Shown one piece after another: positions 35,718 through 39,971 of a DNA stretch of 64,000 bases. A program made the translations under genes and the position numbers. Below the pieces are notes generated by a model, which saw nothing but the letters and a program-made list of their open reading frames with translations, was not told the DNA's origin and did not search any database. Position 1 is the stretch's first letter. Each line of letters begins with the position of its first letter. Source of the stretch: Neophaeotheca triangularis (taxonomy: Eukaryota); contig BAAIJX010000003.1 of assembly GCA_054600435.1 (NCBI GenBank), positions 682,001 through 746,000 of the forward strand, read 5' to 3'.

Positions 35718-37271
35718 TCACAGTTTACTCCGCCCATACTGCATCTGCCTGCTCACAACCCCAGCACCCACCAACCCAGCCAACCCCACTCCCCACCAAA
35801 GCCACCCGCCAGCCCCGGTATCCCTCCCCTCCCTATCAAACCCAGGCTTCTGCTCATTCATACTCCTGAACTTCTTCAGCTTCTCCTGGGTAAAGGGCGG
35901 ATACCTGACGGCCAGAAGACCCTCCATCCACCCGGGCGTCGTCGTGATGGACCTACGGTGCGTGAAAGTGTCGAAACTCGCTTTGCCCCTGTAGCTGCCG
36001 CTGCCGCTGTCGCCGACGCCGCCGAAGGCCAAGGTAGGGATGGAGGCGTGGAAAAAGCCGTCGTTGACGCTTGCGCCGCCCGAGCGGGTTGAGGCGAGGA
36101 TTTTGTCCGTTTCCGCTTTGCTGCCAAAGGGGTAGATGCCTAGCGGGGTTGCGTGGACCGTGTTGGAGAGGGCGATGGCTTCGTCGAGCGTGTCGTAGGC
36201 GAGGATTGGGATCAGCGGGCCGAAAGACTCGGTGGCGATGAGGCTGTCGAGTGGCGAGGAGACTTCGACGACCGTCGGCTCGAAGAAGAGGGTTTCTTTG
36301 TTGGAATTGCCACCGAGCAGGATTTTGCCAGAGGTTTGGGATAGCATTTCTTGCAGGCGGCTGAAGTTGCGGGCGTTGACGATTTTGCCGTAGGAGCTTT
36401 CGTCGCGGGCGCCCTTTGGTTGGAAGTCGGCGAGGGCGAGGCGGATGTTGTCGACTAGGCTGGGCAAAACGGAGCGCTCCACTAAGATGTAGTTTTGGGA
36501 GACGCAGACTTGGCCGACATTGAGCAGTTTGGCCCAAATGAGGCGGCGCGCTGCTAGGCGGAGGTCGGCGTTTGCAGTTACGAAGGCTGGGTTGCGTCCA
36601 CCAAGCTCAAGGGTTACAGGGGTGAGGGTCTCGGCTGCACGCTGGGCGATGATTTGACCGACGTTTGCGCTCCCCGTGTAGAAGATCTTGTCCCATTTGA
36701 GATCGAGGAGGGCTGTAGTCTCAGGGACGGCACCTTGAACGACTTGGTAGGCGGATGGGTCGAGGGAGTTTTCGACAATCTTCTGCATCACGCGAGCAGC
36801 GTTTGGGGCGTTCTCAGACGGCTTGAGGACCGCTGTGCAGCCGGCGGCAATGGCGCCGATGAAGGGTCCAAGAGTGAGCTGGATTGGAAAGTTCCAGCAG
36901 CCAATGACAAGGACGGCACCAAGGGGGTCTTTACGGATGCGTGGTCGAACTGGCATGTTCATCAAGCCCATGTCTTCGGGCTTTTCGTCTTGGGTCCATT
37001 TGGCTAAATTCTTGATCATGTACAGGATGTCGTTGAGCACCCAACCCGTTTCACAGAGATAGGTCTCGAAGTCACCCTTGCCCAGGTCGAGCTGACATGC
37101 TTCGGTGATGGCGTGCTCCTGGTCTTTGATAGCCCAGTAGAGTGCCTTGAGCTGTTGGAGTCGGTACTCTACAGAGCGTGTTTCGTTGGTGGCGAATTTG
37201 GCGACGACACGGTCGTGGGCGGGCCTGATTGAGCTCATATCAGTGGCGGTGTAGGGCGGGAGGTCCGCCAT
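35718..37271 (-). CDS. Class 3 (fatty/apocarotenal-type) aldehyde dehydrogenase with C-terminal TM segment
   Basis: PLGAVLVIGCWNFP, LKPSE, FYTGS, LELGG, GQVCV catalytic Cys, ESFGP, FGGVGDSG. Confidence 0.93.
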   Translation of the reverse strand: MADLPPYTATDMSSIRPAHDRVVAKFATNETRSVEYRLQQLKALYWAIKDQEHAITEACQLDLGKGDFETYLCETGWVLNDILYMIKNLAKWTQDEKPEDMGLMNMPVRPRIRKDPLGAVLVIGCWNFPIQLTLGPFIGAIAAGCTAVLKPSENAPNAARVMQKIVENSLDPSAYQVVQGAVPETTALLDLKWDKIFYTGSANVGQIIAQRAAETLTPVTLELGGRNPAFVTANADLRLAARRLIWAKLLNVGQVCVSQNYILVERSVLPSLVDNIRLALADFQPKGARDESSYGKIVNARNFSRLQEMLSQTSGKILLGGNSNKETLFFEPTVVEVSSPLDSLIATESFGPLIPILAYDTLDEAIALSNTVHATPLGIYPFGSKAETDKILASTRSGGASVNDGFFHASIPTLAFGGVGDSGSGSYRGKASFDTFTHRRSITTTPGWMEGLLAVRYPPFTQEKLKKFRSMNEQKPGFDREGRDTGAGGWLWWGVGLAGLVGAGVVSRQMQYGRSKL

Positions 37272-38137
37272 GGTCAAATGGATAACCATCTTGACAGGGG
37301 GGTAGAGTAGAGGTGAGCGGAAGGGCTGCTGGACCTACTGTACTTGTGCTAGTTGTGGAAGTCAAAGTATCAGTAGGGAGGGAGTGGGAGAGATGCTAGT
37401 GGTCTCTGTGATGTTGTCGCCGTTGTTGTTGTTGTCTGAGGTTGAACGGCAAGATGTGATAAGGTAGTAGTTCCGTAATTAATAGATTCTAGGAGGTACC
37501 TATACCGTACCAATGCCGAGGTGCTTCGCGGGCTGTCAACCAACGTCTCCGCTTTCTGGATATGTAAGGTACCTTGCCTTATGTACCTCAAGATATCCTT
37601 GTCATGTGAAATCGGCCGCATCATCCAATCACATTTCTTTGAGATTAATCGAAGCAGCCAATTGTAGACATACGCTAGCCCCTTTTCTCGACGACATGCT
37701 GCTGTAGAGCAGCTAGAAATTCTATCCTCACGTACGCGTGCAACACCAAGTGCGCTACCGCTACAGGCTAACCACTGTGACGTCGAAGAACGGGGGCTCG
37801 AAAGCAGACAATGGACCTTCGGTAAGCTAATGGCTGGCCTTGACCCTTCTGGATGCTATCCAACGAGACGTATATCGAAATAGTGTACCTAGTTGCTTAA
37901 TTGGTGGCATTCACAAGCTCACTCCAGCATGTCAACACCTTCAACTTCACTACCTCCCAGCTCGAATGAGATGCAGCAAAATCCAGAATCCCAGGGCTTC
38001 AGCAGATCGGCATATCCACCGTGTGGCTACTCATGGGACGCTCCGTACACAAGACATGTCTACCGGAGAGCTCAAGCAAGATCATTCTTCTCCGCCACCT
38101 CGTCAGTGAAGACGAGAGCACGATGAAAAAAAAGATA

Positions 38138-38461
38138 TGTGCGCGTCAGCCAGCGGTAGTGCGATACTAGCGACACGGTGACGGTGAGCATGCGCAAGCA
38201 CAGAAGCTCACCGTCCGGTGCCAAAAATAAGAATAATCTTGAAGGTCCCGTAGGACCCTTTCAGAGATTAAACTGAAACTGAAAGAGGAAGGAGTCAGTC
38301 TCTGCATCATGGGTCGTTCCTTCCTGAACAGGCAACTTACAGAACAGATACTACACTTGATCTAAGCCAAAAGGCTGTCGAGTGAGGGTGTCATGTCAAT
38401 AAACTGGTGGAGTGTGGGTGTTGGTGTTGGGGGTCCGGTTTGACTTACCAAAGAGAGCTGG
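38138..38461 (-). ncRNA. U2: U2 spliceosomal snRNA with two spliceosomal introns (exons 38461-38449, 38374-38341, 38278-~38138)
   Basis: Spliced sequence CCAGCUCUCUUUG|CCUUUUGGCUUAGAUCAAGUGUAGUAUCUGUUCU|UUUCAGUUUAAUCUCUGAAA...; stems IIa, IIb, Sm site AUUUUUG, stems III and IV; ~190 nt mature; ends approximate. Confidence 0.95.
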
Positions 38462-38634
38462 AGAGAGAGAAAGGGAAGAGGGAGAGAAGCGGGCAGGGAG
38501 GCCAGTTTTGTTCCTGCGCTGGCGGCGGGAGTGACTCAGCAGCCGCTCACAATCACTCCTGCAATCACGCCAAGGCCTTCTGTTGACGTCGACGCCCTTC
38601 GAAAAGGGGGGCCGTGCCTGACGCAGAGGCGGGC

Positions 38635-38684
38635 AGATCAGAGCGGGCGGTGAGCTAAGAAAGGTAGATCAGAGCGGGCGGTGA
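38635..38684. repeat. 19-bp perfect direct repeat upstream of U2
   Basis: AGATCAGAGCGGGCGGTGA at 38635-38653 and 38666-38684. Confidence 0.8.
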
Positions 38685-39971
38685 AGGGTGGCAGATCGCT
38701 TGCAAGGGGAGGAGCCTGAGGCTGAAGCATGAGCTCGATAGGCTGGGACTGGGGAGTAGCGTGAATGTTCACTTTGGTATGGCCGGGTGACGGTACGGTC
38801 GAGCAGATTAGCAGTCACGGAGAAATGCTCACTTGGTACCCATACAGTTTGATCCCGGGACTGTCGCAGGCAAATATACCCTACGAGCAGCCACATGTAG
38901 CCATGCAGCGAGATATCTCTTTTGGGCCTGAGCGGCAGCAAGGAAACCTTGATCTTTTTGACAACCTGGCAGATGGATGCAATTGGAGCGGCTGAAAATG
39001 GCAAACCTATCCGATCTTCTCGTTCGGGCCGCATGTCGACAAGGATAACCGTGGTCTGCGTACCAGCGCCTGCCATTCCTTCTCCGTCTAGCTTTGACGA
39101 TGCATCCTGGCCACATCCAGCCGAGATACTGTTGAACCTCCCGATGGTCAAGGAGATCTTTCTACGAAAGATCGCCGGCAACAGGCCACTTTTGCATCAC
39201 AGCATGAACTGTCAATTCGCGGAAGTACATCTTTACGTTTCCTGAAGAGATCGCACGAGGTCAAGGGAGCAGACTGAATTGAAGCGTGCTATCCAGATCA
39301 CAAATCGCTTTTCGGATTTCCGAATACATCTGGGCGGCCATGATGTTTTTGTGCCCGAGACTACGACCGCTCATCTGATAACGATAGCTGGTGGAGAAAC
39401 GGTAGTAAAGAGATCCAGGGGTATCCTGATCTGGCGGAACCGCAAGAATATGGCAAAAGACGAGTCGGCGACAGCATGGTAAGATAACCTCCGGGTACAT
39501 GAGGCTTGGATCGATCCGAGCTGTTAGTGCTGTGGCCATGCGGCAACGTGGGCAGTCGATAAAATGGTAGTATTTGGAGTCAAGCTTAATGGTATTGCGC
39601 TCGAATTTGTTTTCCTCGCGGCGACGTCCACAGACTAGATAGTCGAATTTTTTTATGCAGACTGCCCATATCCTCAGATTAGTCCATCTCGGTGTATCGA
39701 GCTACGTACCTCCGTCGCATTGCACAAGTGAATCGCCAAAGAGCGACGTTGTCGTAGACTGGATGTCGTCTCTCCAAAAAACAGCCGAAGCTTCCCCGAA
39801 GATGACAGCCAACGCGTCTCCAACCTCATCCCGTCGGCGAATACAGCAATTCGATAGAGCCGCAACCCAAAGCTCCAACTCCAACTCCAACGACGACTCT
39901 TCCCTTCCCTCCGACACTCTCCACCTACCTAACCCCCAGGCGAGCTCCCTCACCCTCTCAACCTCGCCAGG

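Follow-up and report, generated by a model that had tools for sequence, protein, structure and literature searches.

For U2 snRNA, the available text of a 2018 review (PMC5855946) cites a single intron-bearing case, that of Rhodotorula hasegawae (Takahashi et al. 1993), and the same work (Takahashi, Urushiyama, Tani and Ohshima 1993, Mol Cell Biol 13:5613) is also among the references of PMC2396436. Other spliceosomal RNA genes are also interrupted, given that the sections of the 2018 review at hand list introns in the U1 and U5 genes of Rhodotorula together with multi-intron U6 genes (PMC5855946), and that they cite, for fungal U6, the intron of Schizosaccharomyces pombe (Tani and Ohshima 1989, 1991) and up to four introns per gene (Canzler et al. 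2016). The preliminary description of the locus reported here had taken introns in S. pombe U6 and in Rhodotorula snRNAs as its background, in agreement with what these sections say of S. pombe U6 and of Rhodotorula U1, U2 and U5. Among the snoRNAs, fungal U3 genes have a TATA box and one or two spliceosomal introns, an arrangement common in Pezizomycotina, and two-intron U3 genes are recorded in the Dothideomycetes Baudoinia and Cucurbitaria (Canzler, Stadler and Hertel 2017, PMC5832005, available text). In that available text, U3 and U6 are named as the sole small structured RNAs that are often interrupted by introns.

The locus analyzed here lies in a 64-kb stretch of DNA (the window) and is best read, from its sequence, as a working U2 snRNA gene of a Dothideomycete that would consist of three exons (11, 34 and ~145 nt) and two ordinary spliceosomal introns, a reading to which we assign a probability of about 0.88. 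As in R. hasegawae, a spliceosomal intron is present in the U2 gene. What is new relative to the record is that there are two introns instead of one, that the fungus belongs to a different phylum (a Dothideomycete ascomycete, R. hasegawae being a basidiomycete yeast) and that the extra intron lies inside stem I. In the full-text literature searched, with most subscription journals outside the search, no report of a multi-intron U2 gene or of U2 introns in Pezizomycotina was found. With fungal U6, as treated in the sections of the 2018 review at hand, intron-bearing U2 shares canonical splice signals in otherwise unconserved introns, insertion sites near the catalytic core, many lineage-specific insertions and the condition of a core spliceosomal RNA that needs the spliceosome in order to mature. 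However, U6 is a Pol III transcript, whereas U2 is transcribed by Pol II, and an intron survey exists for U6 but none was found for U2 in the literature searched. The U3 genes described in the available text of the 2017 survey are likewise Pol II-type small-RNA genes with one or two spliceosomal introns, but U3 has no role in splicing.

The full U2 snRNA gene occupies positions 38459-38134 of the minus strand and is split by two inserts. Exon 1 (38449-38459, 11 nt) comprises U2 nucleotides 1-11, with the 5' strand of stem I, and pairs with U6 in helix II. It is followed by intron 1 (38375-38448, 74 nt), which falls between nucleotides 11 and 12, within the 5' strand of stem I. Exon 2 (38341-38374, 34 nt) comprises nucleotides 12-45, with the loop and 3' strand of stem I, the U2/U6 helix I strand and the branch-site-pairing hexamer (38354-38349), and intron 2 (38279-38340, 62 nt) separates nucleotide 45 from nucleotide 46 at the base of stem IIa. 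Exon 3 (38134-38278) runs from nucleotide 46 to about 190 and contains stems IIa and IIb, the Sm site (38228-38221) and then stem-loops III and IV; the profile match described below stops at about 38134, and the mature 3' end is approximate. All coordinates of the preliminary description proved correct on the minus strand when checked against the sequence, including its placement of the start of intron 2 at 8 nt past the hexamer. When the joined RNA is folded, stem I (pairs 6-25, 7-24, 8-23, 11-20, 12-19 and 13-18) and stem IIa both form. To stem I, exon 2 contributes the loop and the 3' strand, but just 2 nt of the 5' strand, whose other nucleotides lie in exon 1. The earlier statement that the middle exon carries the hexamer, the U2/U6 helix I strand and most of stem I thus stands for the first two items and has to be amended for the third, given that the 5' strand lies mostly in exon 1.

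Both inserts begin with GTAAGT, carry a YTRAY branch-like motif 16-21 nt from their end and terminate in CAG. With equal base frequencies, the combination of GTAAGT, a terminal AG and a YTRAY motif 8-30 nt upstream of it has a chance in the order of 1e-6 per random insert, and because the borders set by homology coincide exactly with GT...AG and this pattern occurs twice, the two inserts are more than chance would produce.

A neighbouring gene indicates the host. An aldehyde dehydrogenase gene at 35718-37334 of the minus strand (Pfam PF00171, E = 8.4e-73) has its best named relatives in Dothideomycetes, at 66-70% identity, including Salinomyces, Cladosporium, Pseudocercospora, Septoria, Teratosphaeria, Zymoseptoria and Hortaea. 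Therefore, the window comes from an ascomycete of the type found in Mycosphaerellales/Capnodiales and not from a Rhodotorula-like yeast, and a close sequenced relative is absent from the list of relatives of this enzyme. The relatives are named fatty-aldehyde or hexadecenal dehydrogenase, or beta-apo-4'-carotenal oxygenase. No Pfam match was obtained for the open reading frames flanking the U2 gene at 37370-37855 and 38669-39196, both on the minus strand.

For comparison, metagenome contigs were scanned for the 20 nt of exon 3 that correspond to stem IIa, which identified at least 117 loci, with full flanks for 80. Among the 117 listed loci, eight had less than 45 nt of upstream sequence, 98 were resolved, and 11 without a resolved alignment were set aside (L006, L030, L048, L052, L055, L059, L075, L088, L089, L090 and L099). 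Of the latter, L030, L048 and L075 had no Rfam match and were rejected as U2, and in L055, L089 and L052 introns are visible by eye that are hidden by the gap-free routine or by a cut contig. The U2 gene at L006:356-594 (88.7 bits) contains an insert of about 48 nt within the region of the branch-site-pairing hexamer. This insert opens with GTGAGT and includes a CTAAC motif, yet its last two nucleotides are not AG; its 3' splice site could be unusual, or the copy could be damaged.

Borders were placed by a gap-free, splice-aware alignment, allowing GT/GC...AG introns of 30-250 nt, to a 65-nt model in which exon 1 and exon 2 were joined, by coordinates, to the same 20 nt of exon 3. On the window itself, this routine places introns after nucleotide 11 (74 nt) and nucleotide 45 (62 nt). 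Among the 98 resolved loci in the matches listed, at least 27 are uninterrupted and identical to the joined exons of the window at 65 of 65 nt. The comparative evidence therefore bears out the preliminary description, according to which two mRNA-type introns flank a 34-nt exon with the hexamer and removal of both restores the canonical 5' region of fungal U2.

The same conclusion about the two inserts can be drawn from an nhmmer profile of U2 that was built from 37 distinct intronless fungal loci. The unspliced window is matched in two pieces, of 99.9 and 37.0 bits (profile positions 46-192 and 11-45), and removal of intron 1 alone leaves two pieces, of 99.9 and 50.2 bits (positions 46-192 and 1-45). 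With intron 2 alone removed the score is 156.9 bits (positions 11-192), and with both introns removed it reaches 170.6 bits in a single match over positions 1-192 that starts exactly at 38459. In a cmscan search of the unspliced DNA, RF00004 (gathering score 46 bits) was found at 38388-38135 of the minus strand, with 99.9 bits, E = 6.5e-19 and model positions 1-192, and it was the sole Rfam family matched in the whole 64-kb window, matches up to E = 0.1 included. All base pairs of stems IIb, III and IV are standard in this alignment. Rfam scores were 135.2-158 bits for seven intronless loci and 69.9-128.7 bits for ten intron-bearing ones, and the 99.9 bits of the unspliced window fall in the range of the latter, being what an intact but interrupted gene would give. 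It had been anticipated that covariance-model scans might miss or truncate the gene. It is not missed by cmscan, but the 5' end is misplaced at 38388, inside intron 1, and therefore exon 1 is lost.

The flanks of the gene were compared with those of the metagenome loci, upstream over 140 nt in 79 distinct loci (38599-38460 in the window). Among the matches listed, TATATA is present in 42 of the 79 upstream regions, at a median of -46, CTAGCG occurs near -79 in 25 and GCCAAG at about -76 in 19, and a pyrimidine-rich tract extends from about -30 to -1, with pyrimidine 6-mers at medians of -9 to -18. In the window, a 42-nt pyrimidine-rich tract (38460-38501, minus strand), almost purely pyrimidine, adjoins exon 1, and an A-rich TATA-like octamer (38503-38510, minus strand), located at -51 to -44 from the putative first nucleotide, may act as a promoter element. 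The window has no clear TATA box, and the A-rich octamer stands in its place, as in L007. Downstream of the gene, the 3' flank (38085-38133, minus strand) has, in this order, a T run containing TTTCAT, a hairpin at 38116-38099 and, at 38093-38085, a purine motif. Of the 82 distinct 3' flanks in the matches listed, 55 have TTTCAT at offset 3 and 74 contain a GARGARG-type motif, whose median offset is about 37; this conserved layout presumably constitutes a signal for 3'-end formation.

The transcript is putatively spliced, and this copy would be the source of U2 in the cell. The alternative that survives best, although we regard it as improbable, is that the locus is a silent or decaying copy whose introns are real in form, while an intronless gene elsewhere supplies U2. 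Such a situation would have a parallel in U3, of which intron-bearing and intronless copies occur together in some fungal genomes according to the available text of the 2017 survey (PMC5832005). A decaying copy, however, would not be expected to retain a 65-nt functional 5' region identical to that of at least 27 intact genes among the matches listed, an intact Sm site, promoter-like tract and 3'-flank motif, and, in addition, two perfect sets of splice signals. Nor would standard pairing throughout the 3' domain be likely in such a copy, and it is seen here despite an identity of only 76-79% to the nearest listed loci. In public sequencing runs, the word shares of the locus were 0.97, 0.50 and 0.00 in DNA runs and 0.11 and 0.05 in marine metatranscriptomes, the latter being too small to show expression or habitat. 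The DNA run with a share of 0.97 may be the source of the assembly and hence provides no independent check of the sequence.

A second alternative concerns the 5' end of the gene. Taken by itself, the Rfam alignment bears out an insertion at intron 2 but does not decide about intron 1, whose final 14 nt are matched by cmscan to model positions 1-14. This alignment would be accommodated if only intron 2 were real and the RNA started near 38388, with 38389-38459 serving as promoter, and a TTTATT stretch is indeed located about 20 nt upstream of 38388. We nevertheless consider such a start very unlikely, given that the cmscan alignment contains two non-standard pairs in stem I and that the fungal profile, unlike cmscan, never aligns the end of intron 1 but skips this stretch, so that removal of intron 1 extends the match from position 11 to position 1 and adds 13.2-13.7 bits. 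Moreover, 74 nt upstream an exact 11-nt canonical 5' end abuts GTAAGT, for which the chance within 200 nt is about 5e-5; this exon 1 is an exact copy of nucleotides 1-11 in at least 27 uninterrupted loci among the matches listed. The pyrimidine tract typical of these promoters precedes 38459 and not 38388, and intron 1 is C/A-rich, unlike that tract. Finally, two of the matches listed, L054 and L094, have an unrelated intron at exactly the position of intron 1, and in L094 a TATA box precedes exon 1 by about 45 nt. Taken as a two-intron gene, the locus would thus have its transcription start at 38459. Two features of this part of the gene count against that reading. Intron 1 starts with GTAAGT and ends with CAG, and its candidate branch motifs are a TTGAC whose A lies 21 nt from the end and an ATGAC at 16 nt, of which TTGAC fits YTRAY but is weaker than the CTRAC consensus; in addition, exon 1 is just 11 nt long. 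The shortest first exons in the listed loci measure 5 nt.

Intron 2 has better splice signals than intron 1, with GTAAGT at its start, a CTGAC whose A lies 16 nt from the end and is followed by a pyrimidine run, and CAG at its end. In the cmscan alignment it is contained in an 81-nt insertion across 20 model positions, which corresponds to intron 2 plus the stem IIa stretch, and its removal joins the two profile pieces into one match. In 102 of the 117 matches listed, the last 24 nt of exon 2 (with up to 3 mismatches) directly abut the stem IIa 20-mer, and because the flanking sequence is continuous in these loci, the borders of intron 2 are unambiguous. The strict pattern GTRNGT...HCTRAC...YAG, which occurs 12 times in the window against 11 +/- 2.7 in Markov resamples and thus at the resample level overall, catches intron 2 as its sole match near the gene and does not catch intron 1. 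The intron of R. hasegawae U2 is reportedly 60 bp long and situated in a conserved stretch just downstream of the branch-site recognition sequence, the same short region as that of intron 2 in the window. Among the matches listed, an intron at the intron 2 site was found in none of the 98 resolved loci, which counts against the main reading. A tandem acceptor is present at 38284-38273 of the minus strand, where the 6 nt that close intron 2 recur as the opening 6 nt of exon 3, so that two CAG sites lie 6 nt apart, the second of them at 38275-38273. Only the upstream CAG would yield canonical RNA, and use of the downstream one would delete the 5' strand of stem IIa.

That the inserts are not introns but mobile-element fragments, introner-like elements still spreading or assembly artefacts is scarcely credible, even though introner-like elements were reportedly described in Dothideomycetes by van der Burgt et al. 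in 2012, since the borders are exact GT...AG at the breakpoints of homology, no further copy of either insert was found in the 64-kb window or in the 117 listed loci (best chance matches of 10-15 nt), and folding energies are within one SD of those of shuffled sequences (-3.5 versus -4.7 +/- 2.4, and -11.3 versus -12.6 +/- 2.8). Within these 64 kb, nothing points to an introner-like element, which would be marked by many near-identical copies and unusually stable folds.

Introns are not confined to the window gene. Among the matches listed, introns interrupt the first 65 nt in 57 of the 98 resolved loci or, counted by distinct sequence, in 53 of 93. Their number is one in 54 loci, two in L087 (after nucleotides 6 and 31), and three in L018 (after 5, 16 and 30) and in L054 (after 11, 24 and 30). 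These 62 introns occupy 20 sites, all within nucleotides 5-31, the most frequently used being nucleotide 24 (11 loci), followed by 6 (nine loci) and 30 (five loci); counting the window gene, there are 21 sites within nucleotides 5-45 among the matches listed. The introns in the listed loci are of the GT...AG type, with a median length of 56 nt, and 57 of the 58 introns from distinct sequences among these matches have a YTRAY motif within 30 nt of their 3' end. As introns in the 5' region of U2 are common, they are evidently tolerated. Splits of the 3' domain were detected in three of the 105 listed loci whose matches reach the 3' end, namely L009 and L062, after about nucleotide 68, and L053, near nucleotide 160. 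In the listed loci, the intron-rich nucleotides are those of the catalytic-core part of U2, and the 3' two-thirds are almost free of introns. By eye, an intron before the Sm site can also be seen in the 3' part of L001. Another of these contigs has, besides an intact U2 gene, a second, partial U2-like match of 59.8 bits (L031:96-194, minus strand), which is on the opposite strand and about 200 nt upstream. We found no paper describing common introns in environmental fungal U2 genes in the full-text literature searched.

The relationships among these genes were addressed with a tree of the U2 3' domains (131 columns), from which L001, L009, L053 and L062, with their 3'-domain introns, and loci with less than 120 nt downstream were left out; 42 of its 82 inner branches are unresolved, and counts of intron gains are indicative only. 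Intron sites differ between very similar U2 sequences, and on this weakly resolved tree site 24 has eight carriers and six changes. The window gene groups loosely with L026 and L037, which are intronless, with L039 (intron at site 7) and with L087 (sites 6 and 31). That its nearest sampled U2 sequences among the matches listed, L037 and L026, have no introns counts against the main reading. None of the listed loci is a close relative of the window U2, the best identity in the 3' domain being 79% (L011, cut at a contig end).

The two introns of the window gene are probably lineage-specific gains. The crowding of introns in the part of U2 that pairs with U6 and with the branch site fits the reverse splicing that has been proposed for U6 and U2 in the available text of the 2018 review (PMC5855946). 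It would also be expected if introns were in general retained preferentially towards the 5' end, or if splicing were better close to the cap.

If the locus is read as a two-intron gene, its expression can be pictured as follows. RNA polymerase II would most likely begin at 38459 and produce a precursor of about 330 nt, with a capped first exon of 11 nt and a strong 5' splice site immediately after it. A spliceosome already holding mature U2 would then remove intron 1, which interrupts stem I at 11 nt from the cap, and intron 2. Until splicing, the exon with the hexamer would be held apart from the remaining RNA, and stem I and stem IIa would form only after both introns are gone, giving a canonical U2 of about 190 nt. 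If this is the sole U2 gene, new U2 depends on old U2. The logic of dependence would then be that of S. pombe, whose single U6 gene bears an intron (PMC5855946, available text). The preliminary description had suggested that this arrangement allows a feedback loop on U2 levels, which is speculation; as a matter of logic, the self-dependence is positive, given that less U2 means less splicing and hence less new U2, and not homeostatic. A broader reading is that the locus is the sole U2 gene of its host and one example of the intron-bearing U2 genes that, in filamentous ascomycetes, would form a large population, undescribed and changing fast, and would record reverse splicing at the active site; we put it forward tentatively and consider it possible, though rather doubtful.

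For annotation, these results mean that covariance scans find such a gene but misplace its 5' end and lose about 50 bits, and U2 genes with three introns could slip towards the RF00004 threshold. With U2, a second RNA besides U6 becomes available for comparing reverse splicing with alternative ways of gaining introns, and for this purpose the pattern of introns in environmental U2 genes may matter more than the single gene of the window. For the fungus itself, a U2 that cannot fold or work before two splicing events would have a supply that depends on existing U2 and, if this is indeed the sole U2 gene, every U2 molecule would be cut twice by a spliceosome that contains U2. If the broader reading is true, U2 would serve as a natural archive of reverse splicing at the spliceosome's active site, as has been argued for U6.
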